Numbered from the stretch's first letter, positions 3,751 through 62,430 are shown. The stretch: DNA of 64,000 nucleotides from Myxococcota bacterium (GCA_025054695.1 JANWZI010000006.1:996-64995); one strand, 5' to 3'. Notes: a model not told the origin generated them from the sequence alone. Translations and numbers: made by a program.

Positions 3751-4398
3751 ATGTCTGCCGTCCAGCCCGTCACCGACGCCACCTTCGAGCGCGAGGTCTT
3801 GCGCAGCGAGTTGCCGGTCCTGGTGGACTTCTACGCCGACTGGTGTCAGCCGTGCCGTGCGCTCGCACCCGTGGTCGCCGAGGTGGCGCGCGAGCTGTCC
3901 GGACGTCTCAAGGTCGTCAAGGTCGACACAGATCGCAACCCTCGTGTCGCGGCGGCGTTCGGCATCCAATCCATCCCCACGCTCGTCGTGATGTCGGGGG
4001 GTCAGGTCGTGGCCCATCACGTCGGCGCGCTAGACCGCAAGGGCCTGCTGCGGCTCGTCGAGGCGGCGCTGCCGCGCAACGACGCCGAGGTCAAGCCGTC
4101 CGAGCTCGCCGAACTCATCCGCCAGCGCCGCGCGGTGCCGGTGGACGTGCGCGACGCCGCAAGCTACCGGCGGCATCGCATTCCGACCGCGCTGCACATT
4201 CCCGCCGCGGACGTGGAGACGCGCATCTCGGAGCTGCGCTCGCTCGACGGTCGGATCCGGGTGCTCTACGGCCGCAGCACCGACGAAGCGCGCGAACTGG
4301 CCGAACGGCTCGCCTCGCGTGGGGTGCGCGTCGGCTATCTCGCCGGTGGGCTATTGCACTGGGAAGCCGACGGCCTGCCCGTCGAACGTCCCGCCTGA
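3751..4398 (+). CDS. thioredoxin fused to a rhodanese-homology domain
   Basis: Inner ATG of ORF 3571..4398. The thioredoxin fold carries WCQPC (not WCGPC). The C-terminal rhodanese-like domain ([21 protein letters not shown]...LYGRSTDEA) has Gly where the catalytic Cys is expected. The stop TGA 4396-4398 lies in the arm of repeat E1. Confidence 0.85.
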
Positions 4399-4565
4399 CG
4401 GCACTGCGCGGCTGCGTCGATGACAGCTGCGGCGAGGGCTTCGGAGAGGGGCGCGCATTCAGGCTCGGGCCCGGACTGCCACGCGGAGTCGGAGTCGGAC
4501 TCCACCTCGGTTCCGGACTCGCAGTACGCCTCGGTGGAACCGACCGCCGTGACCGGCGATGCGAC
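4393..4565. repeat. hexamer-tract inverted-repeat intergenic element, copy E1
   Basis: Left arm GCCTGACGGCACTGCGCGGCTGCGTCGATGA contains the TGA of the Trx-rhodanese gene. The tract is of the GGAGTC/GGACTC type (about 4465-4520). Module CTCGCAGTACGCCTCGG, right arm ...CCGTGACCGGCGATGCGAC. Coordinates are +/-10 nt. Confidence 0.7.
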
Positions 4566-4577
4566 GCCGGGCTCGCA

Positions 4578-4689
4578 CGCTCAGCGCCGATCAGGTTGGT
4601 TGAGGGTACGAACCGATGTGCCGAGCCCGAGCTCGAGTCCGCGTCCGAGCCCGAGTCGCGATCAACCAACCTGACCGCCGCCGTCAGAC
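4578..4689. repeat. hexamer-tract inverted-repeat intergenic element, copy E2 (tandem to E1)
   Basis: A perfect 13-bp inverted repeat, TCAGGTTGGTTGA (4591-4603) and TCAACCAACCTGA (4662-4674), encloses the tract CCGAGCCCGAGCTCGAGTCCGCGTCCGAGCCCGAGTCG. The right arm is CTGACCGCCGCCGTCAGAC. Confidence 0.85.
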
Positions 4690-4802
4690 TCCCGGTCGGC
4701 CATCGAATCCGAAAGGGCCTCGCCCCCGAAGGCCGGCGCGCCCGCGGGGCGGCGCCGTGGATTGGGGGCACGGTGGGCTTGTCCCCGACGGCGCGCGGCT
4801 CC

Positions 4803-7030: not shown

Positions 7031-7804
7031 GTGTGCCGGCTGCTCGTGCCCTTGGTCGTCGCGCACGTCGCTGCTGCGGTCGCGCCGCGTGCGCTTGCGC
7101 AGAACGAGCGGTCGCGTCCATCGGGATCGGAGACGCCCGCTGACGGGCTGCCTGCCGTGTTTTCGCGACGACCGCTCACCCTTCCGACGTCGCAGTGGCG
7201 GATCGACCTGGTCGTGCGTTTGACCTCTAGCCGCGTGGAGCAACCCGTTCGCGAGCTCGGGATGGATCTCGCGTCGGGCTTCGGGGTGGGTCTGTTCGAC
7301 GGCCTCGAGCTGGGGACGTGGCTCCTTCATTTCCAGATTTCGCCCGGATTCGAGGGCAAGCCGGTGCAGCCCTACGTGCTCGGCCGGCTTTCGCGCGGGG
7401 ACGTCGAGCCAGGTCTCGGATTGCTCGTGCGGCTGGGGCAGAGGCCAGGGCTCGTGTTGCTCGCGCCGGTTCTCGTCCATCTCGGTCCGCGTGTCCGGCT
7501 CGATACGGGCGCCAGTGCGGGCGTGCTGCCCGAAGAGCCCACCGCATATTCGATGCGGTTTCCCGTTCAACTGGCCGTGCACCCGGCCGGGCGGGCTTTC
7601 GTTGGGGGCGGGGGTTACCTCGAGCTCGTCGGTGGCAACGACGAGCCTGCTGATGCCTACGTCGGGTTCGAGCTCTTCGCGGGCACGACGGCGGGCAGGG
7701 GGCCGAACGCCGGCACCGACCTGCGGGTGAGCTTCCACGTCCCGAACGTCGTCGAGGGCTACAAGCTCTGGGTGCTCGCGTTCGGCATCGCGTTCCACCC
7801 CTGA
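7031..7804 (+). CDS. hypothetical secreted protein, possibly an outer-membrane beta-barrel
   Basis: In-frame GTG within ORF 6140..7804 gives the signal peptide VCRLLVPLVVAHVAAAVAPRALA/QNE. GC3-rich codon usage, alternating Gly/aromatic beta-strand-like segments, and a C-terminal ...LAFGIAFHP. Confidence 0.55.
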   Translation: MCRLLVPLVVAHVAAAVAPRALAQNERSRPSGSETPADGLPAVFSRRPLTLPTSQWRIDLVVRLTSSRVEQPVRELGMDLASGFGVGLFDGLELGTWLLHFQISPGFEGKPVQPYVLGRLSRGDVEPGLGLLVRLGQRPGLVLLAPVLVHLGPRVRLDTGASAGVLPEEPTAYSMRFPVQLAVHPAGRAFVGGGGYLELVGGNDEPADAYVGFELFAGTTAGRGPNAGTDLRVSFHVPNVVEGYKLWVLAFGIAFHP

Positions 7805-7939
7805 CGGCCGCGCTTCGATGTTTTCGAGCGCGGTTGCGGCCTCGCGCGCGGGCTCCGTTGCGGACGTGCACTCGAAGGCCCCCCGTGGCCGCAACCCACC
7901 CGCGTCGAGCTCGTCGTCGGATTCCGGGACGCCGTCGTC

Positions 7940-8197
7940 GTCGGACGCACGGTGGCCATCACATGGGTGGACGTAACCGAGGGCTGTTGCGAGTCCGAGT
8001 CCGAGACCGAGTCCAGGACCGAGTCGGAGTCCGAGTCCGAGACTGAGTCTGAGTCGGAGCCCGAGTCCGAGTCCAAGACCGATCCCGAGTGCGAGACCGA
8101 GCTCGAGATAGAGCCCAGGTCCGAGACACTGCCCGAGTCCGGAGATCAAGCCCGAGCTCGAACCGCGGTCCGCTCACCTGGCCGCCGCTGTCAGCGG
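7940..8197. repeat. hexamer-tract inverted-repeat intergenic element, copy E3
   Basis: Left arm GTCGGACGCACGGTGGCCATCACATGGGTGGA, module CGTAACCGAGGGCTGTTGCGAG (7972-7993), 25 in-phase GAGNCS units (7991-8140), right arm GAACCGCGGTCCGCTCACCTGGCCGCCGCTGTCAGC containing the cyclophilin stop. Confidence 0.9.
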
Positions 8198-12837: not shown

Positions 12838-12946
12838 CGCCTCGCGGCGCCGGCCAGGTTGATGGATTGCGCCTTCTCCTCGGACTCGGGCCAGGACTCG
12901 CAACACTCCTCGGCTACGTCAAGCAACGTGACCGCCGCTGTCAGAC
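12838..12946. repeat. hexamer-tract inverted-repeat intergenic element, copy E4 (short tract)
   Basis: Left arm ...GCGGCGCCGGCCAGGTTGATGGA, a short tract CTCGGACTCGGGCCAGGACTCG, module CTCGCAACACTCCTCGGCTACG (12897-12918), right arm TCAAGCAACGTGACCGCCGCTGTCAGAC (12919-12946). Confidence 0.88.
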
Positions 12947-13021
12947 CCGGAATCCGTTTCGGGCGCCGTCGCCAATGCGGCTTCGATCCGCCAGAAGCCG
13001 ATGTCGGCTCGTGCGTCGTGC

Positions 13022-13541: not shown

Positions 13542-14411
13542 ATGCCGGCCAGATGGATCGACGGTCGTGAGGTGGCGGCGTGCGTGCGGCGTGCCGTGGG
13601 TGCCGCGGCGGCCAGGTTTTCCGAGCGGACGGGCCGCGCGCCGGGCCTGGAGGTGGTGCTCGTCGGCGACGACCCGGCGTCGCATCTGTACGTGCGCAAC
13701 AAGGAGCGCGCCGCGGTCGAGTGCGGCATCCGCGGGCACGTGCACCGGCTTGCCGCGACGAGCACGCAGGACGAGGTGCGGACGTTGGTCGCACGACTGG
13801 GCGAGCGCGACGACGTCGACGGCATCCTCGTGCAGCTTCCGCTGCCGTCGGGAATCGACGCGCGTGCGGTGCTCGATGCCATCGATCCGGAGCGCGACGT
13901 CGACGGTCTTCACCCGGTCAACGCGGGCCGGCTCGCATCCGGTCGTCCGGGGCTGCGGCCTTGTACGCCGGCCGGCTGCATGCGGCTGCTCGACGCCGTC
14001 GGCTTCGACGTTCGCGGTCGGCACGCGCTGGTCGTCGGACGCAGCGCGCTGGTGGGCAAGCCCGTCGCGCTCATGCTGCTCGAACGCGACGCCACGGTCA
14101 CGATCGCCCACAGCCGCAGTACGGACCTCGAATCGCTCTGCAAGCGGGCCGACGTTCTCGTCGTCGCGGTGGGGCGTCCTGGCCTCGTCCGAGGCTCCTG
14201 GATCCGCCCCGGGGCGGTCGTCCTCGACGTCGGCACGACGCGCGGAGCCGACGGGAAGCTGCGCGGGGACGTCGATCCGTCGGCCGCCGAGCACGCTGCC
14301 TGGATGACCCCTGTTCCCGGGGGTGTCGGTCCGATGACCGTGGCCATGCTGCTCGCCAACACCATCGAGGCGGCCTACCGGCGCGCGGGGCTCGAACCAC
14401 CGACCTGCTGA
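13542..14411 (+). CDS. folD: bifunctional methylenetetrahydrofolate dehydrogenase / methenyl-THF cyclohydrolase
   Basis: Inner ATG of ORF 12867..14411. Motifs are [45 protein letters not shown] and [14 protein letters not shown]. The stop TGA 14409-14411 lies in the E5 arm. Confidence 0.93.
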
Positions 14412-14505
14412 CGCCGACGCTCGCGCGGCTGGGGCGAGGAGCGGAACGCGGACTCGGGCTCGGGCTCGCAACACCCCGCCGCCACGTCAAGCAACGTGAC
14501 CGCCG

Positions 14506-14512
<7 letters not shown>
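14406..14512. repeat. hexamer-tract inverted-repeat intergenic element, copy E5 (short tract)
   Basis: It fills the whole folD/aminotransferase convergent gap. The left arm TGCTGACGCCGACGCTCGCGCGGCTGGGG holds the folD TGA. Tract GGACTCGGGCTCGGG, module CTCGCAACACCCCGCCGCCACG, right arm TCAAGCAACGTGACCGCCGCTATCC holding the aminotransferase stop. 24 of 24 nt are identical to E4 (14484-14507 vs 12916-12939). Confidence 0.88.
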
Positions 14513-17315: not shown

Positions 17316-17520
17316 GAGCGCCGATGGGGTGGATGCCTCGCCCCGTCGTGTGGTGACCCGAGTCGGAGCCGGGGATCGAGCCCGGGGCGGAGACGGATCC
17401 CGGGTCCGAGTCCGAGGCGAGTCGGAGTTCGAGTCCAAGTCCGTGTCCGAGCCCGAGCCGGAGCCCGAGGCCGAGTCCGAGACCGCGCTGGAGGGTGGTT
17501 CGACCGGACCGCACAGCTCA
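17311..17520. repeat. hexamer-tract inverted-repeat intergenic element, copy E6
   Basis: Convergent gap. The left end CGTGAGAGCGCCGATGGGGTGGATGCC contains the TGA at 17313-17315. GAGNCS-type tract at about 17357-17485. The right arm GGTTCGACCGGACCGCACAGCTCAGC holds the hydrolase stop (17518-17520). Confidence 0.75.
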
Positions 17521-37595: not shown

Positions 37596-37610
37596 CCGCT
37601 CGGCGTATGG

Positions 37611-40015: not shown

Positions 40016-40019
40016 GGAG

Positions 40020-45690: not shown

Positions 45691-45697
45691 CGAGCCG

Positions 45698-46985: not shown

Positions 46986-47061
46986 TGTCCGTGCGGTGAG
47001 CCTCGGGCCGGCAGGCAGCGGTCGTCCCGCATCCGCGTTGCGCGTATCGGGGCCCGGCCTC

Positions 47062-48587: not shown

Positions 48588-48760
48588 GTCCATGGCCTGC
48601 TCCTCCGCACCTGGCGAGCGCGGATTTCGATCGGTGCTCGGCGGCGTGGGTCGATCGAGTTTGTGGAATCGAGCCTGGCCTCGGACTCCGCGTCCGGCGT
48701 ATCCGCGCCAGCGCACTCGATGCCGAAGTGATGCGCCGTCGCCACGGCCTTCGTCAGACA
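48583..48760. repeat. degenerate, nearly tract-less relative of the same family, E20
   Basis: GGTTGAGTCC at the GT2 stop, a mini-tract CCTCGGACTCCGCGTCCGG, and the right arm-like GTCGCCACGGCCTTCGTCAGAC (compare E9/E13 GCCGCCTTCAGAC). Weak. Confidence 0.3.
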
Positions 48761-48872
48761 AGTCTCGTGCACGGAGGGCATCGCCGCGCCCTTGCCGCCG
48801 TCGGACGCGCTGACTATGGTGCCCAATGCGTGATCCTCTGCGTGGGTCGCGCCTTGCGAGGCGGAGCGAGCC

Positions 48873-51305: not shown

Positions 51306-51376
51306 GCCAGACGGCGCAATGGCCTCGCCGAGCAGGTCGATCACCGACGGGAGGTGTGTCTCGGGTCGGCGTGGGA

Positions 51377-51625
51377 GTCTGACGGCGGCGGTCACGTGGG
51401 CTCGATGTAGCCGACGCATGTTGTGAGACCGGGTCCGAGTCGCGTCGGAGTCCGTCTCGTCCAAGTGGGAGTCGGAGCTCGAGACGGAGACCGAAGCCGA
51501 GACCGAATCGGAGTCCGAGACGGAGTGATAGCCAGAGCCCCCGCTGAAGTCCGATTCCCGAGCCCGACCCGAGGTATCCGGGCCCCGACTTCGACGTCGG
51601 CTCGAGCGGTTCCAGCCGTCAGCAC
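51377..51625. repeat. hexamer-tract inverted-repeat intergenic element, copy E15
   Basis: Best-preserved left arm GTCTGACGGCGGCGGTCACGTGGGCTCGA (51377-51405), module ATGTAGCCGACGCATGTTGTGAG (51405-51427), GAGNCS tract at about 51430-51590, and right arm CGAGCGGTTCCAGCCGTCAGCAC holding the protease stop (51619-51621). An extra arm-like fragment lies at 51302-51376, starting at the lon TGA. Confidence 0.9.
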
Positions 51626-52524
51626 CGCACGCGTGGTCGGCGCCGGACGATCACGGCCGCGAGGGCGATCAGCCCCACGGAGCCAGAAAGACGCCACGTA
51701 CCGTGTCCGGCCGCCCGACAGCCGCACCCGGACGGACTGGCGTCGGTGCAGTCGAGATCGAGGCCCCCGCGGGGGGTGGGATCGCAGGCCTCGGGAAGGG
51801 CCCCGGAGGGATAGATGGCGCAGAAGCCCTCCACGTCGTCCCCCCGCAGAACGCGCTTGTCGACTTCACCGGGCTCGGAGTAGCCGTACATCGCGGCGTT
51901 GCGGTCGGCCGAGTGCGCCAGCCCGAAAAAATGGCCGACCTCGTGGGTGATCACGTTCTGCAGGTCGATGGTCCCGTCGGTACATCCCGCCGGCGCAGGG
52001 CAGACGCCGTAGCGACCCCGCTCTTCGTTGATCTCCATGTCGACGTCGTAGATCTCCCCCGTGCGCGTGTGATGCCACACCGTGGTGAGCGCGTAGGCCT
52101 GCGGGTCGTGGTCCCTCTCGGTCCAATCGGCGACGAAGGCGATCACGTTGACGTTGCCTCCGTCCTGGACGTACTGGGCGCGGTCGCAACGTGCGCGGCG
52201 TGATTCGCGCCGCACTTCGAAGCGCGGGCCGGGTCCGCAGTCGAGCGCGAGCCAGGCCTCGAAGGAAACATCGACGATCCGCAGCACGTCGGCGTCGTCG
52301 AGGTCTCGCGCGCCGCGCGCGTCGACGGCGTAGCTCATGCATCGCCGCCGCCACTCGAGCGGGATACCTTCCATCACGCACTCCCCGATGAACGAGGGTG
52401 GGCGCCGGCTGGTCGTCATGCGACACCATGCGCGCGCGGTCGTCGACGTGGACAGCATCGCGAGCGCGACGCCGAGCGCGAGGCTGATCCCCGCGCGCCG
52501 TACAGGTTCAGCGGCGCACTTCAC
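51619..52524 (-). CDS. matrixin-like zinc metalloprotease with a MYXO-CTERM-type C-terminal sorting signal
   Basis: ORF track. Signal peptide, zinc motif HEVGHFFGLAHS followed by a Met-turn (AAMYGY), and the C-terminal GCGCRAAG...VGLIALAAVIVRRRPRVRC. The stop lies in the E15 arm. Confidence 0.85.
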   Translation of the reverse strand: MKCAAEPVRRAGISLALGVALAMLSTSTTARAWCRMTTSRRPPSFIGECVMEGIPLEWRRRCMSYAVDARGARDLDDADVLRIVDVSFEAWLALDCGPGPRFEVRRESRRARCDRAQYVQDGGNVNVIAFVADWTERDHDPQAYALTTVWHHTRTGEIYDVDMEINEERGRYGVCPAPAGCTDGTIDLQNVITHEVGHFFGLAHSADRNAAMYGYSEPGEVDKRVLRGDDVEGFCAIYPSGALPEACDPTPRGGLDLDCTDASPSGCGCRAAGHGTWRLSGSVGLIALAAVIVRRRPRVRC

Positions 52525-53107
52525 CGGTGACGTGGGCCAGGCGCGCGAGGCGAGCGCGCAGCTCCGCCAGAGGCGTGGGGCCGCTCAGGGCTGGCGCAGC
52601 GGGCGCGAGCACGCCACGCGCATCCTGGCGAACGAGCGCCAGGCCTCCTGCTCCCGGCAGCACCAGGTCCCCGGCGGGTGCTTCGACGATAGGAAGAACG
52701 CCCTGAGACATTCCCACCGGCCGAAAGTAGCCGCCGCCGGCACCCGCACGCAGGAAGAAGACCGCGCGCAGCCCCGGCTCCAACGCGGGCTCGCCCTCGA
52801 TCCGCATCGCTGTTTCGCCGATCTCGCCACCGAACGAGCGGACGATCACGCTCGTGCCCACGGCCACGTGGCCCCGCGTCACGTGCAGCACGCGAACCTC
52901 GGCGTCGGTAACGATGCGGCCGAGCGCGTCGAAGCGGCTCGATGCGCGCTCGACGCGGCCTTCGACGACGAGCGTGGAACTACGCACGAGCGCCTCGAGG
53001 TCGAGCGCCGCCGCGAGCGTGGCGCGAGCGGTGGGGAGCGTGCCCGGAAGGGCGAATGCGACCGTCGTGCTCAGGGCGAGCAACGCTACGCTCCGCCGGG
53101 ACCGCAC
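52508..53107 (-). CDS. hypothetical secreted protein
   Basis: ORF 52508..53713 trimmed to GTG 53107, giving VRSRRSVALLALSTTVAFALPGTLPTARA (signal peptide). Its 3' end overlaps the metalloprotease start by 17 nt. Confidence 0.55.
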   Translation of the reverse strand: MRSRRSVALLALSTTVAFALPGTLPTARATLAAALDLEALVRSSTLVVEGRVERASSRFDALGRIVTDAEVRVLHVTRGHVAVGTSVIVRSFGGEIGETAMRIEGEPALEPGLRAVFFLRAGAGGGYFRPVGMSQGVLPIVEAPAGDLVLPGAGGLALVRQDARGVLAPAAPALSGPTPLAELRARLARLAHVTGEVRR

Positions 53108-53139
53108 ATTCGAACAGGATGGGCGAAGCGTCGACCTCG

Positions 53140-53640
53140 TCAAGACGGCCCGGGGCTCGACGACGAAATGCGCCGCGAACCGATCCCGCGTCTCAGCGCG
53201 CGCCACGGCTCGCGCCAGGAGACGGGGGGGGAGAGGGCGACGAGCACCGCCAGCACGACGAGCCCGGCATTGCGAACGATCGGCCAGACGCCCACGCGCG
53301 CGGCGACTCGGCCTCCGAAGCAGCCACACTCGACGTCGATCCCGCGTACGAGCGCGGAGGCCATCGCGACGCCGAACACCACGAGCAACCCGGCGGCGAC
53401 GACGGCGGCGCCGCGTGCATCGACCCCGGTCAGCAGGCTCGCGGCGAGCACCAGCTCGACGACGGGGACGGCGACGGCCACGGGCCCGACGAGTGCGGCC
53501 GGCAACAAGTGGTAGTTGTCGAGCGCCGCCGCGAAGGCATCGGGCTGGACGAGTTTGGGCACGGCCGCGGTCGCGAAGATCGCGGCCAGCACGAGCCGCG
53601 CCGCGAGAACGCCGAGGCTCCTCAGGGACAGTGCCGACAC
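53140..53640 (-). CDS. MauE/DoxX-like membrane protein
   Basis: ORF 53140..53778. Four predicted TM helices and a Cys pair (DVECGCFGG), as in MauE. The start is uncertain: GTG 53640 was chosen and ATG 53676 is the alternative. Either start overlaps the 3' end of the rhodanese gene. Confidence 0.7.
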   Translation of the reverse strand: MSALSLRSLGVLAARLVLAAIFATAAVPKLVQPDAFAAALDNYHLLPAALVGPVAVAVPVVELVLAASLLTGVDARGAAVVAAGLLVVFGVAMASALVRGIDVECGCFGGRVAARVGVWPIVRNAGLVVLAVLVALSPPVSWREPWRALRRGIGSRRISSSSPGPS

Positions 53641-54149
53641 TCTCCGGCCTCCGCAGGCAAGTCGCGCTCGAGCCATGCCGCGATTCCACCCTCGAGCACG
53701 CGAACGTCGGCAATTCCCGCGCTTGCGAGTAGACGCGCCAGTCGCGTCGAAGCGGCGCAGCCTCCCGAGGTGTCGCAATAGGTCACGACCGTCCGTGCCT
53801 CGCGCAGCACCGCCAGGATCGACGGATCGACGGCCCCCGTCTCGGCCACCGGCGCCGAGATGGCTCCGGCGACGTGACCGGCTTCAAACGCGGCGCGCCC
53901 GCGCGCGTCGACGAACACCACGCTGGGCCGGCCGTACAGGGCGGCCGCATCGTCCGGCGAAATCCACGACAACGTGCCCTCCGTGACGGGTGCGGGCGTC
54001 GCAGCCTCCGAGTCGGCTCCCGGCGGTGCGCACGTCAGCGCTTCGGGGGCAGCGGGCGGGAGCGTGGGCAACCCGCGGATCGCGGCCATCCCGACGGCGA
54101 GCAGCCCGGAGACGAGCAACAGGCGAGCGGCCTCGATGCCGATGCTCAT
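53622..54149 (-). CDS. membrane-anchored rhodanese-domain protein
   Basis: ORF 53622..54311 trimmed to MSIGIEAARLLLVSGLLAVGMAAI (TM anchor); the upstream part is a translation of the E16 tract. The rhodanese fold (VVFVDARGRAAFEAGHVAGAI) has the active-site loop YCDTSGGCAAS. Confidence 0.75.
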   Translation of the reverse strand: MSIGIEAARLLLVSGLLAVGMAAIRGLPTLPPAAPEALTCAPPGADSEAATPAPVTEGTLSWISPDDAAALYGRPSVVFVDARGRAAFEAGHVAGAISAPVAETGAVDPSILAVLREARTVVTYCDTSGGCAASTRLARLLASAGIADVRVLEGGIAAWLERDLPAEAGECRHCP

Positions 54150-54199
54150 CGGGTCGTGTAGTACCGCTGCAGGACGCAACCCGCCACGCGCACGCGCAA

Positions 54200-54420
54200 C
54201 GCCGACGGTCGGCGGTCGGCTGCCGCACGACTGGCGGTCGAGGTCCGGACCGAGTCGAGACTCGGGCTGGGACTCGGACTCGGGCTCGGTCTCCGAACCG
54301 GCGTCGGACACGGAGCGCGGGCTCCAGCTCGGACCGCCGGGCCATTGCGACCTCGAAGCGCACCTTGCCGGGGCGAAGGCATCGGGGTCGTCTCCGCGAA
54401 ACGGAGCAGCCCATCGTCAG
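54200..54420. repeat. hexamer-tract inverted-repeat intergenic element, copy E16
   Basis: Left arm GCCGACGGTCGGCGGTCGGCTGCCGCACGAC, a short tract (54240-54300), right arm AACGGAGCAGCCCATCGTCAGCGC holding the permease stop (54417-54419). Confidence 0.7.
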
Positions 54421-55220
54421 CGCCCGGTGCGAGGATCGAGCCGGTCGCGGAGCCAGTCGCCCGTACGATGCATGGCGAGGACGACGACGGCGAGAACCGC
54501 CGCGACTTCGAGCGCGACGTGCGGAAAGCGCAGAAGAACCGACGTCCCCTGGTCGAGCAGCGCGCCCCAGCTCGTCTCCGTCGCCGGCCCCATGCCGAGA
54601 AACCCGAGCGTCGCCTCCGCCACGATGGCTCCGCCCATGGCCGCGCTCGCCTGCACGAGCAGCGGCCCACCCAGGTGCGGAAGCACGTGCCGGAGGAGCA
54701 CGCGCGCCTCGGAGGCGCCGAGCGCCCGCGACGCGAGCACGAAGTCCCGATTGCGCAGCTCGAGCGCGCGCGACCGAGCCAGTCGGGCGAAGACGACCCA
54801 GCCACTCGCGCTGAGGGCGACGACGAGGTGTTCCGGTCCGGGACGTTCGACGAGCGCGAGCAGCGCGACGTGCAACACGAGCGACGGGAACGCGGAGACG
54901 AGGTCCGCCAGCGCCATCACCGCGTGCTCGACGAGCCCACCGCGCATCGCGGCGAGCGTGCCGAGCATTGCACCCAGCACGAGGCTGATGACGACCGTGC
55001 TCGCCGCGATCGTGCCGCCAAATCGCGCGCCGTGCAGCAACACCGACAGCACGTCGACGCCGTTGTCGGCGGTGCCGAGCGGGTGCCGCAGGCTCGGCCC
55101 CTCGTACTGGCGCGCGAGATCGATGGCGTGCGGATCGTGCGGAGCGAGGGCCGGTCCGACGAGCGCCGCGGTCAGGTAGCCGGCGACGACGAGCCTGGGC
55201 CAGCGCGCCTCGGCGCGCAT
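54417..55220 (-). CDS. ABC transporter permease (DppC/OppC type)
   Basis: Inner Met (MRAEARWPRL) of ORF 54417..56330. The ATG overlaps the upstream TGA (ATGA). EAA-loop-like ASRALGASEARVLLRHVLPH. The stop lies in the E16 arm. Confidence 0.85.
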   Translation of the reverse strand: MRAEARWPRLVVAGYLTAALVGPALAPHDPHAIDLARQYEGPSLRHPLGTADNGVDVLSVLLHGARFGGTIAASTVVISLVLGAMLGTLAAMRGGLVEHAVMALADLVSAFPSLVLHVALLALVERPGPEHLVVALSASGWVVFARLARSRALELRNRDFVLASRALGASEARVLLRHVLPHLGGPLLVQASAAMGGAIVAEATLGFLGMGPATETSWGALLDQGTSVLLRFPHVALEVAAVLAVVVLAMHRTGDWLRDRLDPRTGR

Positions 55221-56170
55221 CAGGGCGACACCGCCTCCCGTACCCGCGGATCGACGGCGGCGTGCAGCAGATCCGCGACCACGAAGATCCCGACGTGCAG
55301 GGCCGCGGCGAGCAGCGCGCATCCCTGCACGACGGGCACGTCGCGGTCGAAGAACGCCTCGACGAGCAGCGAGCCGAGCCCCGGACGTTCGAAGAGCCGC
55401 TCGGCGACGACGGCGCCGGAGAGCAGCGCCCCGGCCTGCGCGGCGCCGAGCGTCAGCACGGGGCCGAGCGCCGTCGGCAGCGCGTGCCGCACGAGCGCGT
55501 GCGTTCCGGACAGTCCGCGCGCGCGCGCGGCGGCCACCCACGGCTCTCCGATCGCCTCGAGGGTTGCGGCCCGGCACTGTCGCAGCAGGGTTGCGGCCAT
55601 GGCACCGCCGGTGGCGAGCGCGGGCAAAAGCAGGCCGCGCACGCCGCGGGCCTCCTCGTCGCCCGGCATCGGGAGCCATTGCAGCACGACGCCGAAGACG
55701 AGCACGAGCAGCGGACCGAGCACGATGGTCGGCACGGCGGCGCCGAGCGCGCCGAGCCCCGAGACGATCCGGTCGATCCTGCGGCCGCGGCTGGCCGCCG
55801 CGAGCACGCCGAGCGGAAGGGCCACGGCCCAGGCCACCGCGAGCGCGGCCAGCGCGAGCGCGACGGTGTGCGGCATCGCCTCGGCGATCAACGAGCCGAC
55901 CGTGCGATCCGGACGTCGGAACGAATGGCCGAGCGATCCGTCGAGCAACGCTCGCGTCTGGGAGGCGAGTTGTTCCCCGAGGGGTCTGTCCAGCCCCAGC
56001 GCCCTGCGCATCGCTTCGCGGTCCTCGGGCGCCGCCTGGTCGCCGAGAATCGCATCGACGGGATCGCCTGGAACGAGGCGTACCAGGAGAAAGACGAGAA
56101 GCGCGACCGACAGGACGGTCAGAAGCCCTCGCCCGAGTCGAATCACGACGAATCGCCACACGCGCGTCAC
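55220..56170 (-). CDS. ABC transporter permease (DppB/OppB type)
   Basis: ORF track. Motifs are LVRLVPGDPVDAILG and the EAA loop AARARGLSGTHALVRHALP. Confidence 0.85.
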   Translation of the reverse strand: MTRVWRFVVIRLGRGLLTVLSVALLVFLLVRLVPGDPVDAILGDQAAPEDREAMRRALGLDRPLGEQLASQTRALLDGSLGHSFRRPDRTVGSLIAEAMPHTVALALAALAVAWAVALPLGVLAAASRGRRIDRIVSGLGALGAAVPTIVLGPLLVLVFGVVLQWLPMPGDEEARGVRGLLLPALATGGAMAATLLRQCRAATLEAIGEPWVAAARARGLSGTHALVRHALPTALGPVLTLGAAQAGALLSGAVVAERLFERPGLGSLLVEAFFDRDVPVVQGCALLAAALHVGIFVVADLLHAAVDPRVREAVSP

Positions 56171-56188
56171 GGCGTGGACGAAACGGGC

Positions 56189-56569
56189 TCAGGGCCCCAC
56201 TGCGCAGAAGCGCGCCGTCTCGGGCGATCCGAGCAGCCGCGCGAGCGGCGCGCCGTCCGGTCCACGCAGGGCCGAGGCCCGCACGCATCGGTAGCCCTCG
56301 TCGCGTCGGCAGTCTGCGTCGTCCTCGCACGCGGCCATGCAGTAGCTGACCGCTAGACGCGGCGGCTCAAATCGGAACTCGACGCAGCGCGCGTCGTCGG
56401 GGCAGGTGCCCTCCTCACACGGCGTCATCGTGCAGTAGCCCCCCGGCGAGGCGGTGTCGCAGATCCGATCCCCCTGGACGGAGCAGTCGACGCTCGTCTC
56501 GCACGCGTCGCCGATCCGCGGCTCGCACGCGGACCCGATCGCGACGATCAAGAATAGGCAAGCTCGCAC
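56189..56569 (-). CDS. small cysteine-rich lipoprotein
   Basis: ORF track. Lipobox LIVAIGSAC/EP. It shares the Cys-rich module (CEDDADCRRDEGYRCV) with the 41037..41948 protein. Confidence 0.65.
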   Translation of the reverse strand: MRACLFLIVAIGSACEPRIGDACETSVDCSVQGDRICDTASPGGYCTMTPCEEGTCPDDARCVEFRFEPPRLAVSYCMAACEDDADCRRDEGYRCVRASALRGPDGAPLARLLGSPETARFCAVGP

Positions 56570-56655
56570 AAAGGGTGGAGCATAGTGATGCGCCGCCGGA
56601 TGTCCACGTTGCCCCGTGGAGCGATGCGCAACGGTGCGACGATGCTCTGCCGCCT

Positions 56656-56937
56656 CGGACCCACGGCGGCGGTCACCTGGGGACGACGCGCCCGAGGGCT
56701 GTTATGAATCAAGCCCCGAGCTCAGGTCCAAGTCCAAACCCGAGTCAGACTCCGATCCCGAGCTCGAGCCGGATAGCAGCGATCCCGTCGATCGACGATG
56801 CCGAGGGGCATGGCGATTCCGAGGCCGTTTCAGAGCCCGAGCCGGAGGCCGAGGCCGAGCCTGCGCTCCGAGCCCGACTCCCCCCCCGAGACCGAGGTGG
56901 AACCGCGGCCACCCAACGTGGCCCCTGCTGTCGGACT
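56656..56937. repeat. hexamer-tract inverted-repeat intergenic element, copy E17 (in a divergent promoter region)
   Basis: Left arm GGACCCACGGCGGCGGTCACCTGGGGACGACG, module CCCGAGGGCTGTTATGA (12 nt, CCGAGGGCTGTT, are identical to E3), a GAGNCS-type tract, right arm GAACCGCGGCCACCCAACGTGGCCCCTGCTGTCGGAC (compare the E3 right arm). Confidence 0.88.
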
Positions 56938-57168
56938 CCAGTTCGGTACTCGGGGCGGGACTCGACTTCGAACCGGTTGCCCAAAGCCCCTCGTGCGTTC
57001 CTGCTGGAGGCCGGTGGACGAACGCCCGCGCGGGGCAAACCGACGGCACTCCGCCGGACGTGTACTCTAGACCGCAGTTCCGTGTGCGCGGCGCCGCGTG
57101 TTGAGTGTGGCCAAGCGCCGGCGTCGGCTCGCTTTTCGAGGGAACGGCGCGTGCAATAGGCTTCCCCC

Positions 57169-58521
57169 ATGCTGCGTCGAGTCGAGAGTCGGTCCCATCG
57201 TGGGGCCGTCATGGTTTTCGCGATTGCGGCGGCGGGCTGTGCCATGGAACTGTCCGATTCGGCGGGGACGGGACCGGAGGGCGCATCCATCCATGCCGAG
57301 GTCGAATGCGGAATGTATGGCCGAGCGCCTGGGTCGAACCGCCCTCCCGCGCTCGAGGACGTGCTCGCGGGGGCTCGCTACATCGCCGATGCCGACGGGT
57401 CGATGCGGCTCTCTGCGCTGAGGGTTCTCTCGGCCTACGTGCGCCCCGAGGAACTGCCGACGGAGGCCACTTGGAGCCGCGCGGATCCGTGGATCGTCGT
57501 GACGCATCCCTCGGGCTCCATCGTCTGGACATTCTATCAGGGCGACACCGTGGCGACTGAGTACTGCGTCGCGCCGGACGCACTGCGCCCCGGCGAGCGG
57601 CTGGTGCCCATGCTGGACGTCGACTGGGATGCCGGCGCGCTCGCGCTGGGTCCCGACGGCTTCCGCGAGCTGGAGCCCGATGCGGCCGGTTCGCCCGAGC
57701 ATCCGCTCGTGGAACGGGCGCCAGCGTCCTCGACGAACGAGCTCGACGAGGAGACCGCGCGCGGCGCGACGGTGGCGGTCCGTTATTTGAAGGCGTGCCC
57801 GACGAGCCTGCGGGAATGTCTGCTGTATGGCCCGCTTTCCGACATCGTCGCGGCCGTCGATCCGCTCGAGCCGCCCGGAGGGTGGAACCTGCGACCCGCC
57901 GCTCCGAGCTGGGATCCGGCGTCGTTCCGGGTCGACGGACGGCTGCGGCACCCGCTTTCCGCCGCGGAGTTTGCCGAGATCGAGTGGATGGATCGCCCCG
58001 ACGACGAGGGCAGTCCCGTCGCGGTTCGGGTCTGGATCGTCCGCGCGGATCGGCGCGTGCCCGCCTTCGACTACGAGGTGTGGGACCGACCGATTCCGGG
58101 CTTCGATACGAACATCGAGCTGGTGCGTGACGGCGACCGACTGGTGCTGACGGCGTGGTCGCCGGACACCGGCGTCGGAGCCGTCTCGGAGCACGATGCC
58201 CGAACGCTCGAGCGCATCGGGGCGCCCCTCGTCGTGCGCGCCGAGCCGTACCACGACCTCGGCTGTGACGCAGGACTGTGGTCCATGCGACCGACGCCGG
58301 TGCGTACGGCGCGGGGTCTGCGCATGGCATTGCACGACGGAGGCGCCCGGGCGTGGTACTTCGAGCAGCCGGGGCAATTCGGCGCCGAGGTGCGCGTCAC
58401 CGAAGAGGGGCACCACGCGATGTTCGAGGTGGCCGCGGATGGTTCGCTGCGGCCTGCGCGCGGCTCGCGGCCGGTCGTCCTCGACCTCTACACCGATTCC
58501 CTCTCGTACGCCGACGAATAG
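57169..58521 (+). CDS. hypothetical lipoprotein
   Basis: ORF track. Lipobox VMVFAIAAAGC/AME, GC3-rich codons, no catalytic motif recognised. Confidence 0.65.
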   Translation: MLRRVESRSHRGAVMVFAIAAAGCAMELSDSAGTGPEGASIHAEVECGMYGRAPGSNRPPALEDVLAGARYIADADGSMRLSALRVLSAYVRPEELPTEATWSRADPWIVVTHPSGSIVWTFYQGDTVATEYCVAPDALRPGERLVPMLDVDWDAGALALGPDGFRELEPDAAGSPEHPLVERAPASSTNELDEETARGATVAVRYLKACPTSLRECLLYGPLSDIVAAVDPLEPPGGWNLRPAAPSWDPASFRVDGRLRHPLSAAEFAEIEWMDRPDDEGSPVAVRVWIVRADRRVPAFDYEVWDRPIPGFDTNIELVRDGDRLVLTAWSPDTGVGAVSEHDARTLERIGAPLVVRAEPYHDLGCDAGLWSMRPTPVRTARGLRMALHDGGARAWYFEQPGQFGAEVRVTEEGHHAMFEVAADGSLRPARGSRPVVLDLYTDSLSYADE

Positions 58522-58559
58522 ACTTGAGACGCGCCGACCGAGCGCGTCCGGGTCGTGCC

Positions 58560-60707
58560 GTGCGCGCGTTGCTGAGGCTCGCCGCGACGCTCCCGCTCAC
58601 GCTGCCGGCCGTCGCACGCACGCAGCCGCTCGAGCGGGCCGCGGCGCTCGCGCGGGAGGGGCGGACGCGGGCGGCGCTCGAGGCCCTCGGAGACGAGCCG
58701 TCCGCTGCGGGGCGGTACCTGGCGGCTCGACTGTATGATAGATTACAAAGCTGGGAGGCGGCGGCGGACGCGTACGCCGCGGTGCTCGTCGCGCCGGACG
58801 TCGGGACCGTGCCCGAGGAGGTTCGTGCGCGTCTGCCGGCCCTGGGCGCCATGGCGGCCGCGCGTGCCTGGCGCTGCGACCCGGCGGCCGCGATGCTCGA
58901 ACGTCTCGAGGCCGATCGGGGACCATTCCAGCAGGAGGCAAGAGCCCTGCTCGCGTTGTGCGCGGTCCGCACCCGCTCCGCGCACGAAGCCATGGCGTCG
59001 CTCGAGCGCGCGCTCGCCCACGGCACCGGCGACGTCGATGCGATGGACTTGGAGCTCGCCCTCGCCACGCTCCAGGCGCAGGCGGGCCGGACGCGTTCGG
59101 CGCTGGAGCGCCTTCGAGGGCTTCGGGCGAGTCGACCGGACCACCCCCGCGCGCAGGACGTCGAGCGGCTGATCGCGCAGCTCGGTGGTCCTGCCGAGCC
59201 CACCGTCGACGAGCGACTCGACCGCGCCGAGCGCTGGTTGGCGATCCGTCTCGCTCCGCGGGCGCTCGAGGAACTGGAGCGCGTCGCGTTCGCGATGGGG
59301 GCCGCCAGCCCGACGCGGCGCGCGCGCTTTCACCACCTGCGGGGCAGGGCGCGGATCGCGGCGCGGCGCGACGCGCAGGCCGCGGCGAGCGACTTCGCGA
59401 CGGCGGCGCGGCTCGGCGGGCCGACGGCCGTCGAGGACGCGTTCTGGCACGCTCGCGCGCTCGAGCGCGCCGGGCTCGACGCGAGGGCCATCGCCGCCTA
59501 TCGGCGGTTCGCGCGGACGCATCCGGGCTCCGCGCGCGCGTCGGATGCGATCCGGCGCGCCGCCCTGCTCGAGATGCAGGCGGGGCGCCCCACCGCGCTC
59601 GAACGCTGGCTGCGCGAGGCGCCCTCGGGCGAGGACGCCGACGTGCATGAAGCGGCGATGCGCCTCGGCCTGCATGCGCTCGACCGCGGGCAGGCTGGCC
59701 GAGCCATCGAGCGCTTCGAGCGGGCGCGCCACGCCGCGCCCGACGGGATGTCGCGCGCGCGCGCGCTGTACTGGTCGGCTCGCGCGCATCTGCAGGGCGG
59801 CGCCCGCGACGCGGCGATCCGTGCCCTGCGCGCCGCGCTCGAGCCCGATCCGCTCGGCTGGTACGCCTTGCTCGCGCGCGACTGGCTCTCGCGCCTCGGT
59901 GCGCCGTTCGCGGACGCGTTCGCCGCGCCGCCGGTCCGAGACCCCGAGCCACCGGTTCCTTCGTTGCCGCTGCCGGCGGCGGTGAGCTGGCACGCGCGGC
60001 TCGGATTGCTCGAAGAGGCGCGCGCCGACCTCGAACGGCACGCTCCGCTGATCCGCGCGCGTCTGCCGCCCGAGCGCGCCGACGCGGAACTGGCGGCGGC
60101 GCGGCTCGCCATCGGAGACGTGCACGGCGCATACCGGCTCGCCGTGCGGGGCCATGGGGCGCGCCTCGCGCGTCCCCCCGACGCGGCCGACGGATGGGTG
60201 TGGGCCGTCGCCTATCCGCGGCCCCACGAGGAACACGTGCGAGCCGCGGCGAGCGCCGAGGGAATCGACCCCGAGCTGATCTGGGCCGTGATGCGGCAGG
60301 AGAGCGCGTACGATCCACGGGCCGTCTCGCGCGCCGGCGCGCGCGGGTTGCTTCAGCTCATGCCCGCCACCGCGCAGGCCATCGCGCGAGTGGAAGGCGC
60401 CTCCGTCGACGACCCCGACGTGCTCTTCGAGCCCGCGCGCAACATCGCTTGGGGCGCGCGTTACCTCGCGCGTCAGCGCGCGCGCTTCGGCTTCCCACTC
60501 GCGCTCGTCGCGTACAACGCGGGCGGACACCGGCTCGAGCGCTGGCTCGGAAGTTGGCCCGGTCTGCCACTCGACGCCTTCGTCGAGCGCATTCCCATCG
60601 ACGAACCGCGCAACTACGTCCGTCGCGTCACGGGGCACCTGGCGCGATACCTGTACTTGTCTGGCCGCCCGGACGAGGCCTTCGCGCTGCTCAGAGCGCC
60701 GCGATGA
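58560..60707 (+). CDS. slt: soluble lytic murein transglycosylase (Slt70-like)
   Basis: ORF 58278..60707 trimmed to GTG 58560, giving VRALLRLAATLPLTLPAVA/RTQ (signal peptide); TTG 58524 is the alternative. A long superhelical Ala/Arg/Leu repeat region is followed by the catalytic domain (AVMRQESAYDP, GLLQLMPATA, AYNAGG). Confidence 0.85.
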   Translation: MRALLRLAATLPLTLPAVARTQPLERAAALAREGRTRAALEALGDEPSAAGRYLAARLYDRLQSWEAAADAYAAVLVAPDVGTVPEEVRARLPALGAMAAARAWRCDPAAAMLERLEADRGPFQQEARALLALCAVRTRSAHEAMASLERALAHGTGDVDAMDLELALATLQAQAGRTRSALERLRGLRASRPDHPRAQDVERLIAQLGGPAEPTVDERLDRAERWLAIRLAPRALEELERVAFAMGAASPTRRARFHHLRGRARIAARRDAQAAASDFATAARLGGPTAVEDAFWHARALERAGLDARAIAAYRRFARTHPGSARASDAIRRAALLEMQAGRPTALERWLREAPSGEDADVHEAAMRLGLHALDRGQAGRAIERFERARHAAPDGMSRARALYWSARAHLQGGARDAAIRALRAALEPDPLGWYALLARDWLSRLGAPFADAFAAPPVRDPEPPVPSLPLPAAVSWHARLGLLEEARADLERHAPLIRARLPPERADAELAAARLAIGDVHGAYRLAVRGHGARLARPPDAADGWVWAVAYPRPHEEHVRAAASAEGIDPELIWAVMRQESAYDPRAVSRAGARGLLQLMPATAQAIARVEGASVDDPDVLFEPARNIAWGARYLARQRARFGFPLALVAYNAGGHRLERWLGSWPGLPLDAFVERIPIDEPRNYVRRVTGHLARYLYLSGRPDEAFALLRAPR

Positions 60708-61770
60708 GCGCCTCGCCCGCAGCGCGTGTGCCGAGCGAGCCGCCCACGTCCGGCGTGCAACGGCCCGCCTCAATGGCGTTCCGAACGAGCTCGACAAGCC
60801 GTACTTCTTCTTCGGGCCAGCCCAGGTGCGAGAGCATCATGCCGACGCTGAGCACGGTGGCGAAGGGATTGGCGAGGTCGCGCCCGGCCAGCGGTGGCGC
60901 GCTGCCGTGCACCGGCTCGAACATCGAGACCCGTCCCGGATGGACGTTGGCGCTCGCGGCCATGCCGAGCCCTCCCTGGAGCGCCGCGCCCAGGTCCGTA
61001 ACGATGTCGCCGAAGAGGTTGCAGGTGACGATGACCTCAAACGGCGACGGGTCGCGCACCAGCTCGTAGCAGAGCGCGTCGATGTAGAGGTGTCGCGCCT
61101 CGATGTCGGGGTAGTCGGCGGCGACCTCGAAGAAGCAGCGGTGCCACAGCCCGTGCGCGTGCGGCATCGCGTTGCTCTTGTCGGCCATGTGCACGCGGCG
61201 CTTGCCGTGCCGCCGCGCCCAGTCGAACGCCGCGCGCACGATGCGCTCGACGCCGCGGCGCGTGTTGACGTCCTCGTTGATCGCGATCTCGTCGATGCCG
61301 TCGCGACGCAGCGTGCCCCCGATGCCCGCGTAGATCCCCTCGGTGTTCTCGCGGAAGACGACGAAGTTGCAGTCGGCCGCTCTCCGTCCCCGCAACGGCA
61401 TCAGGCGGTCGTGCAGACAGACCACGGGCCGGATGTTGCAGTACAGATCGAGGCCCTGACGCAGCCCGAACAGGATGTCGCGCGCATAGCCGAGATCGGG
61501 AACGCGCGGGTCACCCAAGGCGCCGAGCAACACGGCGTCGCACTGCTCGCGTACGAACCGGGCGATCGCCGGCGGCCAGCTCGTCCCATCGCGCAGGTAC
61601 CGCTCGGCGCCCACATCGAGCGGAACGATCTCGATCGGGTAGCCGCGCAGCTCGATCAGCCGTTCGAGCACGCCGACCCCCACGCGGACGACCTCCGGAC
61701 CGATCCCGTCGCCGGCGATGACCGCGACCGTCTTCTTGCCGTTCCGTGCCACGGGGCGCGACGCTAGCAT
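60691..61770 (-). CDS. isocitrate/isopropylmalate dehydrogenase-family enzyme (3-isopropylmalate or tartrate dehydrogenase-like)
   Basis: ORF track. Motifs are [24 protein letters not shown] and [25 protein letters not shown]. Its 3' end overlaps the slt 3' end by 17 nt. Confidence 0.85.
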
Positions 61771-61799
61771 GCGTGCGCGCCCCGTCTCGACGCGCGCCG

Positions 61800-62318
61800 A
61801 TGCCCGGACCCGGACCTCTCAGCCATCTGGACGCGCGCGGGCAGGCGCGCATGGTCGACGTGCTCGACAAGCCCATCACCGCCCGCGAGGCGCTCGCCGC
61901 GGGCTTCGTCCGCATGCGGCCCGAAACCCTCGAGCTGCTTCGGCGCGGACGGGCGGCCAAGGGCGAGGTGCTCGGCGTCGCTCGCGTCGCGGCGATCGCG
62001 GCGGCCAAGCGGACGGCGGAGCTCATCCCGCTCTGCCACGGGATCGCGCTCGGCAAGGTCGAGGTGAGCTTCGAGGCCCAGGCCCCGCGTCGGCTCGAGG
62101 TACGCGTCCGGGTGCGCGCGGCGGATCGAACAGGTGTCGAGATGGAGGCCCTTGTCGGCGCGGCGGTGGCGTGTCTGACCGTGTACGACATGCTCAAGGC
62201 CGTCGATCGGGGCATGGTCATCGAGCGGATCGCGTTGCTCGAGAAGCGCGGCGGCCGGAGTGGTCCGTGGCGGCGCGCGGAGCGAGCTGGAGCCACGAGG
62301 CGTCCGCGCCGCGCGTGA
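61800..62318 (+). CDS. moaC: cyclic pyranopterin monophosphate synthase MoaC
   Basis: Inner ATG of ORF 61746..62318. Motifs are [33 protein letters not shown] and YDMLKAVD. The stop TGA 62316-62318 lies at the edge of E18. Confidence 0.9.
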
Positions 62319-62430
62319 GCGGACACCGAGAGCTCTTTCGGACTCGGACTCGGACTCGGACTCGGACTCGGCCTCCGACTCGGTCTCGGACTCGGACTCG
62401 CACACGGTCTCCGCTCGCGCGGATGTCAGC
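62314..62430. repeat. hexamer-tract inverted-repeat intergenic element, copy E18
   Basis: It fills the moaC/membrane-protein convergent gap. CGTGAGCGGACACCGAG at the moaC TGA, 10 in-phase units (62341-62400, 8 of them GACTCG), module-like CTCGCACACGGTCTCCGC, and the right end GGATGTCAGCC holding the downstream stop (62426-62428). Confidence 0.75.

Follow-up and report, generated by a model that had tools for sequence, protein, structure and literature searches.

The DNA analysed here, hereafter the window, is a 64,000-nucleotide stretch of a Myxococcota genome assembly (GCA_025054695.1, JANWZI010000006.1:996-64995) with a G+C content of 71.6%. It spans a housekeeping region that includes mreBCD-pbp2-rodA, folD, lon, smpB, moaC and other genes, and its intergenic gaps harbor repeated copies of one composite element, in which a tract of hexanucleotide units lies between two inverted-repeat arms. 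The gene map was built on codon-position GC and checked against Pfam domains in approximately 50 open reading frames (ORFs) and, for 46.9-61.3 kb, against the gene calls of a metagenome-assembled genome (MAG) that overlaps the window.

The Lon protease encoded in the window is identical to that of this Myxococcota MAG (GCA_033577305.1, contig JAVQYH010000029.1, hereafter L001), and the next-best Lon proteins, Sandaracinus amylolyticus among them, are 84-86% identical. The next-best FolD is 68% identical to the FolD of the window, and no closer relative was found via FolD. Taken together, these values identify the source organism as an isolated Sandaracinus-like lineage.

Architecture of the composite element

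When the copies are oriented with the core reading GAGNCC and their left ends are aligned, a single plan is obtained, GGGAGTCTGACGGCGGCGGTCAC-GTTGCTTGAC-GTAGCCGAGGGCTGTTGC-(GAGNCC)n-(C)GATCAACCAACCTGACCGCCGCCGTCAGAC(TCCC), the two ends of which, apart from two C/C mismatches, are reverse-complementary over approximately 28-30 nt. The element is asymmetric through its GTAGCC..TGTTGC module: the GTAGCC core, noted in several copies by a preliminary description of this DNA, is kept in modules on the left-arm side and nowhere else save in E37362, which carries an inverted copy. Eight copies have in common the junction TG(T/C)(T/G)GC followed directly by GAG, and in eight copies an ordered similarity of 45-55 nt extends across arm and module as far as the first hexamer, with a 24/24 identical stretch in one pair. 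The shared junction and the single oriented plan indicate that the composite is real, and not a coincidence of two features.

We count 17-18 element loci in the window, so that the figure of at least 20 copies given in the preliminary description was too high. The summed spans, for which several boundaries are estimated, amount to approximately 3.85 kb, or 6.0% of the window, in line with the roughly 4 kb first reported. The arms (51377-51405, 37308-37335 and 12919-12946) and modules (12897-12918 and 7972-7993) quoted there are found at those places, and our element map agrees that copies occur in both orientations and in convergent, co-directional and divergent gaps. At 4396-4690, E4461 on the minus strand and E4623 on the plus strand stand head-to-head, and their arrays are therefore inverted to each other. 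Elements are approximately 100-315 nt long, with arrays of 3-6 units in the minimal copies (E12870, E14450 and E4623) and of 30-35 units in the largest, and every array of at least 7 units lies outside genes. Additional arrays are present in the 8 kb of L001 that do not overlap the window.

Within the window, the pattern (GAGNCS)5 with no more than 3 mismatches has 187 matches at 15 loci where 0.02 are expected; a 20-mer from the arm, of which there are three exact copies, has 4 matches with no more than 3 mismatches (0.12 expected from shuffled sequence), and a 22-mer from the module has 2 (0.00 expected), placing the arm and module likenesses beyond chance in GC-rich DNA. Tandem Repeats Finder (TRF) delimits period-6 arrays with 0% indels at 37378-37545 (28 copies), 7990-8101, 43753-43876, 45465-45600, 46778-46940 and 62338-62411. 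The tract lengths of 25, 28 and 33 units reported earlier are upheld by this TRF count of 28 and by the 25 in-phase units at 7991-8140 and 33 at 40041-40238. Phase, described as strict throughout, is strict inside the long arrays but jumps in E17360, E40041, E41986 and E56742. As for the remaining arms, which had been taken for degenerate versions of the best copies, nhmmer detects only approximately 10 arms, belonging to 8-9 elements; the rest are CTGACGG-like stubs, which are all that is left in E17360, E24122, E29895, E43755, E45479, E46759 and E54258. The individual copies are listed in Table 1.

Table 1. Copies of the composite element in the window (positions counted from its first nucleotide).
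Element	Span	Strand	Features
E4461	4396-4572	-	Outer-arm TGA 4396-4398 is the thioredoxin-rhodanese stop; array 4461-4508 (8 units); left arm and module ~4515-4568 (nhmmer 4568-4515, E 3e-7)
E4623	4573-4690	+	Minimal; left arm 4573-4604; array 4623-4658 (6 units); right arm 4660-4690 (GATCAACCAACCTGACCGCCGCCGTCAGAC); head-to-head with E4461
E7991	7941-8194	+	Left arm and module 7941-7990 (..GTAACCGAGGGCTGTTGC); array 7991-8140 (25 in-phase units, decaying to 8165); right arm 8166-8194; TCA 8191-8193 is the cyclophilin stop
E12870	12838-12947	-	Minimal; best left arm and module 12894-12947; 3-5 hexamers 12870-12893; degenerate right arm 12838-12868
E14450	14409-14514	-	Minimal; convergent gap, stop to stop; FolD TGA 14409-14411; aminotransferase TAG 14506-14508 at the arm-TGA position; three hexamers 14450-14467
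E17360	17313-17520	+	Sub-arrays 17360-17419 and 17419-17484 in different phase; arms degenerate; CN-hydrolase stop 17518-17520 in right-arm remnant ..CACAGCTCAGCGG
E24122	24100-24286	-	Decayed array 24122-24229; co-directional gap between mreB and GH1 gene; arms unrecognisable
E29895	29880-30085	-	Array 29895-30068 (29 units); PKD-domain gene stop 30083-30085 in inner TTGAC of left-arm remnant
E37362	37306-37596	-	Right-type arm 37306-37337, TGA 37311-37313 ends a 1028-aa gene; inverted GTAGCC 37351-37356; array 37362-37547 (31 units, one in-frame TAG); degenerate left arm ~37566-37596
E40041	40011-40325	-	Array 40041-40255 (33 in-phase units and phase-shifted tail; 54-nt higher-order period); marginal arms 40298-40325 and 40011-40038
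E41986	41975-42171	-	Interrupted array 41986-42123 upstream of lipoprotein-like gene; marginal left arm 42143-42171
E43755	43672-43970	+	Convergent gap, stop to stop; TGA 43672-43674 (CTGACGGTGG) and TCA 43968-43970 (CCGTCAG) are the stops of both neighbours; array 43755-43952 (33 units)
E45479	45440-45692	+	Divergent gap; array 45479-45598 (20 units, one in-frame TAG); right-arm remnant ..CGCCTTCAGACTCGAG ~45670-45692
E46759	46709-47010	-	Arm remnant CCTGACGGCGCCGCGCGCAC (from 46709) gives stop 46712-46714; array 46759-46938 (30 units)
E51469	51374-51621	+	Best left arm 51374-51407 and module (GTAGCCGACGCATGTTGTGAG); array 51469-51522; right-arm remnant CAGCCGTCAG, TCA 51619-51621 is the M10 peptidase stop
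E54258	54250-54416	-	Short array 54258-54311; co-directional gap between rhodanese gene and ABC permease gene; arms unrecognisable
E56742	56655-56948	+	Divergent gap; left arm and module 56655-56710; three sub-arrays in different phases (56742-56905); right arm 56913-56937
E62340	62316-62431	-	Fills convergent gap; array 62340-62399 (10 units, 8 of them GAGTCC); degenerate left-arm TGA 62426-62428 ends the right-hand gene; MoaC stop 62316-62318 on the other side

Placement at gene ends and stop codons

Elements occupy 7 of the 9 convergent gaps in the window, 3 of the 9 divergent gaps and approximately 6 of the 38 co-directional ones. In many cases the arm itself supplies the stop codon of the adjoining gene: the TGA of the outer-arm CTGAC is the neighbor's stop at 4396, 8191, 14409, 37311, 43672, 43968, 46712 and 51619, a stop lies in a degenerate arm at 17518, a TAG takes the equivalent arm position at 14506, and the stops at 30083 and 62426 are taken from an inner arm TGA. 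E14450 and E43755 fill their convergent gaps exactly from stop to stop, and E17360 does likewise with degenerate ends. Read directly, each arm closes two of the three incoming frames, with TGA at arm positions 4-6 and 26-28 and a TAG at 31-33 in the first frame. Elements terminate about one gene in five in the window and fill most convergent gaps, which bears on how repeats, selfish or domesticated, come to settle exactly at stops.

Of the 53 gene stops, 16 fall within or at an element; a TGA or TAG followed by C is found in 11 of these 16 versus 9 of the 37 elsewhere (Fisher p 0.0045), a test that is partly circular because stop codons had served to place some of the element boundaries. A separate count is free of this circularity: CTGAC(A/G)G occurs 25 times, and 6 of the 9 occurrences within 150 nt of an array are neighbors' stops, compared with 1 of the 16 elsewhere. 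The FolD protein, the stop of which is an arm TGA, has 289 aa against 282-291 aa in its homologs, and 9 residues separate the end of its Pfam domain from the stop; this natural length shows that the arm begins at the native gene end and not inside a truncated gene.

Two further gene ends deserve mention. In the interval 7802-7940, a TGACGGCCGCG context also surrounds the stop of the gene that has its end at 7804. It lies 137 nt beyond the left arm recognised for E7991 and may be what is left of an earlier arm or of another element. In L001, the gene upstream of the region shared with the window is uvrC, and its ORF crosses a short array for approximately 35 codons before it ends at a TGA that lies in a degenerate arm.

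Array conservation, arm decay and searches for relatives

The profile of the array was derived from 307 units and repeated on 235 units that TRF delimited independently of the motif. Position 1 is G (0.93), position 2 A (0.86-0.88), position 3 G (0.86-0.89), position 5 C (0.90-0.92) and position 6 C (0.74-0.81, with G at 0.11-0.18), while position 4 accepts any base (T.41, C.22-.25, A.23-.27, G.10-.11; 0.15 bits). This conservation persists where the arms have decayed. The make-up of position 4 differs between arrays (chi-square p 1e-4), and neighboring units resemble each other at the shuffled level (94/290 vs 93.5), with identical neighbors in only 31/290 cases. Slippage of single units is not supported as the source of array homogeneity, since adjacent units are no more alike than shuffled ones; the only clear recent block duplication is in E40041, with a 54-nt period and 87% matches. 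Long arrays of hexanucleotide units are, to our knowledge, seldom met with elsewhere in bacterial genomes.

The consensus array is free of stop codons in all six frames, and read as codons GAG-NCC gives Glu followed by Ser, Thr, Pro or Ala. The conservation, however, is at the nucleotide level: positions 3 and 6, nominally the third codon positions, vary no more freely than position 2, and the NCN codons of the genes in the window end in G (NCG 53-63%) more often than in C (NCC 31-39%), the opposite of array position 6. In-frame TAGs occur in arrays, no genes are called in the element gaps by the MAG annotation (46.9-61.3 kb), and the distance from the arm (GGTCAC) to the GTAGCC module, read directly from the sequence, is approximately 10, 11 or 22 nt among copies and is thus not restricted to multiples of 3. 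On this evidence of spacing, phase jumps, in-frame TAGs, codon usage and gene calls, routine translation of an (E-S/T/P/A)n repeat is rejected, as is a C-terminal sorting signal or lipoprotein linker. A 92-aa ORF on the minus strand (40029-40304; GC content at third codon positions, GC3, 0.90; ...ESETESESE...AIE*) spans the whole E40041 array and is probably spurious. ORF callers may likewise report spurious acidic repeat 'proteins' or prolong real genes into arrays.

The arms present a different picture of maintenance. In the best copies, for example at 51377-51405 and 12919-12946, TGAC, GTCA and TGAC follow each other at 11-nt spacing, and the resulting TGAC-N7-GTCA-N7-TGAC forms two overlapping short palindromes with stems of 4-5 bp only, which are lost in degenerate copies. 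Folding of arm onto arm, a check proposed in the preliminary description, succeeds in the best copies: arms pair in RNA folds of E4623 (z -2.5 and -3.1, the latter for the minus-strand RNA of segment 4573-4692 at -61 kcal/mol) and of E7991 (z -2.1), but other copies fold no better than shuffles. Moreover, the mean complementarity of an arm to its own partner, 5.17, is no higher than that of cross-element pairs, 5.18, and so the arms decay independently, without compensatory upkeep of a long hairpin. The own-versus-cross comparison and the weak fold z-scores together rule out a long-range hairpin under selection, and the independent decay fits dying terminal inverted repeats, not a selected RNA stem. 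A scan of the segment 36-56 kb found no canonical hairpin-plus-T-run terminator in its three occupied convergent gaps. A GGATTC motif outside the arms was also considered and dropped, its enrichment being merely modest.

No transposase, RAYT or integrase domain was found in the 64-kb window by Pfam on approximately 50 ORFs or among the MAG gene calls, as the preliminary description had stated (RAYT, REP-associated tyrosine transposase; REP, repetitive extragenic palindromic sequence). The exact 20-mer arm gave single matches only, 12 in 185,579 species-representative genomes, 11 in JGI metagenomes and 0 in viral contigs, and the source genome is evidently absent from these collections; no match outside the window has an inverted partner above background. 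Two of these matches, at L005 1875-2010 (a Byssovorax MAG) and L007 1215-1350 (a 'Bdellovibrionales' MAG), are intergenic and near gene stops, look alike to the element but lack an array, and were set aside as chance because their inverted partners are no better than background. Neither arrays nor arms were found in the 22-kb lon loci of S. amylolyticus and two relative MAGs. Downstream of lon in a 68% GC MAG (L015 12440-12760) we observed instead a canonical GC hairpin/terminator and a 71-nt unit present twice in tandem and followed by inverted copies, a different repeat that indicates that other Polyangiales own separate intergenic repeat families. A search of the window against Rfam gave no match at the gathering score and, in E-value mode, only two chance miRNA matches; blastn of the arm consensus against 72,556 plasmids gave chance matches only and no Tn3-family repeat; and literature searches found no description of this element. 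Of the checks proposed for novelty, those in Rfam and the literature returned no catalogued match.

The MAG provides an independent view of the arrays themselves. The window and L001 are 99.97% identical over 46902-61305, a 14.4-kb alignment with no gaps and 5 mismatches in which E51469, E54258 and E56742 are all present, and the two assemblies represent the same strain. Upstream of 46902 they are unrelated, and the break falls inside the array of E46759 (46895-46920, corresponding to L001 8020-8045); one assembly may be chimeric, or the array may be a real rearrangement point. Logan contigs of SRR15826901 (L028, L029 and a 1763-nt contig carrying P0121) are short and stop near or inside arrays, with L028 ending at approximately 62365 inside E62340. 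The elements probably fragment short-read assemblies of this genome, and a mis-join or rearrangement inside an array, visible once here, bears on fragmented and possibly mis-joined short-read genomes. A separate oddity is P0122, the only high-scoring match in the search via FolD, from a 1421-nt contig (L030, GCA_033612675.1), where a 424-aa ORF consists of two partial FolD copies in tandem; this is probably an assembly artefact with no relation to the intergenic elements.

Origin of the family and comparison with known systems

We favor, with a probability of about 60%, the interpretation that these elements are a lineage-restricted, non-autonomous and non-coding family of inverted repeats, similar to miniature transposable elements with inverted repeats (MITEs) or to REPINs (paired, inverted REP units), that spread to gene ends and in which the arms are decaying while the array is kept homogeneous. 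Under this interpretation, elements would have spread by transposition with an enzyme encoded elsewhere in the genome, and would have settled at or a few bases from stop codons, where insertion is tolerated. After insertion the arms would decay and array length would shift via slippage or block duplication, for which the 54-nt period of E40041 is the clearest candidate, with array homogeneity upheld by concerted evolution or by selection. Stop codons, C-terminal tails (such as the approximately 35 residues added to UvrC in the MAG contig) and possible 3' hairpins would be side effects, and the elements may act as recombination or assembly breakpoints. If the density of the window, approximately one element per 3.5 kb or 6%, held genome-wide, this lineage would contain thousands of copies, an extrapolation that would put it among the most repeat-laden bacterial intergenic landscapes.

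Several observations weigh against this interpretation. No consistent target-site duplication was found, since matches in the flanks of 75% of elements, compared with 47% of mismatched controls, lie at inconsistent positions; most outer element ends entering this test have degenerated or been overwritten with coding sequence. The 64-kb window showed neither an autonomous copy nor a cognate enzyme. Near-identical copies are absent as well, the two most similar left ends reaching approximately 79% identity when counted from the alignment, so that there is no sign of recent activity. Approximately half of the arrays have no statistically recognisable arms, and membership of these in the family therefore rests on the array and short CTGACGG stubs. 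The exact coincidence of arm TGAs with native stops is hard to obtain by random insertion and selection. Finally, neutral decay does not explain arrays in which positions 1, 2, 3 and 5 are 86-93% conserved while position 4 is random and neighbors are uncorrelated; concerted evolution among very many arrays may be the conservative answer to the homogeneity of CCGAG-N in old arrays. In this respect the family bears on how an array can persist after the inverted repeats around it have decayed.

The conservation of the array and its position at gene ends could also mean that the element is a domesticated 3'-end cassette under selection, acting as a bidirectional terminator, an mRNA-end protector or a (CCGAG-N)n protein-binding platform. 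Occupancy of 7/9 convergent gaps, often exactly stop-to-stop, would be expected of such a cassette, as would the lack of a canonical terminator in the three occupied gaps at 36-56 kb when a relative has one after lon; five array positions are approximately 90% conserved even with arms unrecognisable, and the free, uncorrelated position 4 places this conservation at the level of nucleotides and not of codons. We nevertheless regard a cassette as rather unlikely, because own arms are no more complementary than cross-element arms, which leaves no selection for a long hairpin, fold z-scores are weak or null in most copies, arrays lie in both orientations to transcription and also in divergent (promoter) gaps, and their size varies from 3 to 35 units; concerted evolution, in addition, could mimic constraint. 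A narrower and somewhat less probable proposal is that the (CCGAG-N)n arrays alone are selected, as a periodic binding platform, on DNA or on transcript 3' ends, for a lineage-specific protein, with the element as delivery vehicle. It is suggested by five positions conserved at 81-93% beside the free position 4 (0.15 bits), the uncorrelated neighbors, arrays that outlive their arms and conservation that is not codon-like, and, if true, it would imply thousands of platforms in a genome-wide, repeat-borne regulatory or chromosome-organising system without a described bacterial counterpart.

The remaining explanations dispense with the composite, with its non-coding nature or with its existence in the genome. 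Generic GC-rich stems after stops (TGA plus CGGCGG) could share gaps with independent hexanucleotide microsatellites, given that about half of the arrays have no significant arms and many 'arms' are just CTGACGG and GC-rich sequence; yet the 45-55 nt of ordered similarity in eight copies (24/24 identical in one pair), an array that begins at the same junction every time and keeps one orientation to the module, and 20-mer and 22-mer motifs far above shuffled expectation make two unrelated features improbable. It is less probable still that the arrays encode protein, as (Glu-Ser/Thr/Pro/Ala)n or (Asp/Val/Gly/Ala-Ser)n repeats in small acidic proteins or C-terminal tails, in the manner of Rickettsia palindromic elements (RPEs). 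GAG-NCC, Glu plus four NCN amino acids, would then explain the free position 4, the array is open in six frames with a 92-aa ORF (GC3 0.90) over E40041, and the UvrC ORF of the MAG contig extends approximately 35 codons into an array, but third positions are unrelaxed and position 6 is C in 74-81% against the NCG of 53-63% in genes, arms and modules are spaced by non-multiples of 3, in-frame TAGs and jumps of phase occur, neither a start nor a ribosome-binding site is conserved, the MAG annotation has no gene call there, and arrays lie in either orientation within stop-bounded convergent gaps. That metagenome assembly created or inflated the hexamer tracts, as the parting of the window and L001 at 46902 inside an array and the ends of Logan contigs in or near arrays might lead one to suspect, is scarcely credible when an independent MAG has E51469, E54258 and E56742 (14.4 kb, no gaps, 5 mismatches) as well as further arrays, and when array sequences are heterogeneous and locus-specific.

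Among known systems, the closest in behavior are REPs and REPINs. A REP unit is an imperfect palindrome of 20-40 nt with a GTAG or CGTC head that is mobilised by a RAYT, and REPINs are vertically persistent and lineage-specific. REPs are found mainly between convergent and co-directional ORFs, in convergent gaps no more than 20 bp from both ORF ends, and their termini often supply the stop codon of the flanking ORF, with some copies inside ORFs that include uvr genes (PMC3733652). This published behavior means that a link to gene ends is known for this class. Like REPs and REPINs, the elements described here are short, GC-rich, non-coding, high-copy repeats with two inverted units around a spacer, placed at 3' ends and supplying stops. 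They differ in that the arm appears to form no clear 20-40 nt palindrome; that the spacer is a hexanucleotide array of 3-35 units and not a short unique sequence; and that the stop is a TGA from CTGAC, whereas that of a REP is a TAG from GTAG. Nor does the arm carry a GTAG or CGTC head: GTAG lies on the inner side of one arm only and not at the head of each palindrome, which leaves the connection to RAYTs suggested in the preliminary description unsupported.

The same description had classed the elements as MITE- or REP/BIME-like (BIME, bacterial interspersed mosaic element) and non-autonomous, and this remains the best fit for small, non-coding, dispersed intergenic copies with terminal inverted repeats, although no consistent target-site duplication was found. 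In common with classical MITEs, they have terminal inverted repeats, are small without transposase coding capacity and occur in many dispersed copies. The inverted repeats of classical bacterial MITEs are approximately 30-40 nt long, and those of TIMEs (miniature elements with inverted repeats, derived from Tn3) approximately 38-40 bp and of Tn3-family type (GGGG...TAAG). Over its outer 11 nt, the arm (GGGAGTCTGACG) resembles what we take to be the Tn3 inverted repeat, GGGGTCTGACG, with an ACGTAG box where Tn3 presumably has ACGTTAAG; no database support for this likeness was found. TIMEs generate 5-bp AT-rich target duplications (PMC4133298). No 5-bp AT-rich duplication was found at the elements of the window.

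Tandem repeats in intergenic positions have other precedents. The mycobacterial interspersed repetitive units (MIRUs) and variable-number tandem repeats (VNTRs) of Mycobacterium tuberculosis are intergenic repeats of variable copy number in a high-GC genome, the ends of which overlap flanking stop and start codons; MIRU units measure approximately 40-100 nt, lie within operons, lack inverted repeats at their flanks and are presumably translated in frame. Our elements share with them an intergenic tandem repeat of variable length and ends that overlap gene stops, and differ in the 6-nt unit and the flanking inverted repeats. Neither the kept frame nor the codon-like substitution of an RPE- or MIRU-like coding insert is seen in them.

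BrickBuilt, a MITE of Porphyromonas gingivalis, consists of a spacer-free tandem repeat with a 23-nt unit, a 'leader' and a 'tail' and small inverted-repeat ends, and is always intergenic, with 19 copies per genome and a limited host range (PMC4596501). A tandem-repeat core between inverted ends in an intergenic setting is what the two have in common, an analogy of design only. Its 23-nt unit contrasts with a unit of 6 nt with one degenerate position here, it belongs to another phylum and is unrelated in sequence, its 19 copies per genome compare with approximately 18 per 64 kb here, and its published abstract mentions no link to stop codons. The element of the window thus works like a REPIN or a MITE and fits no named family, and is apparently an undescribed and unusual variant of the MITE/REP type of bacterial repeat.

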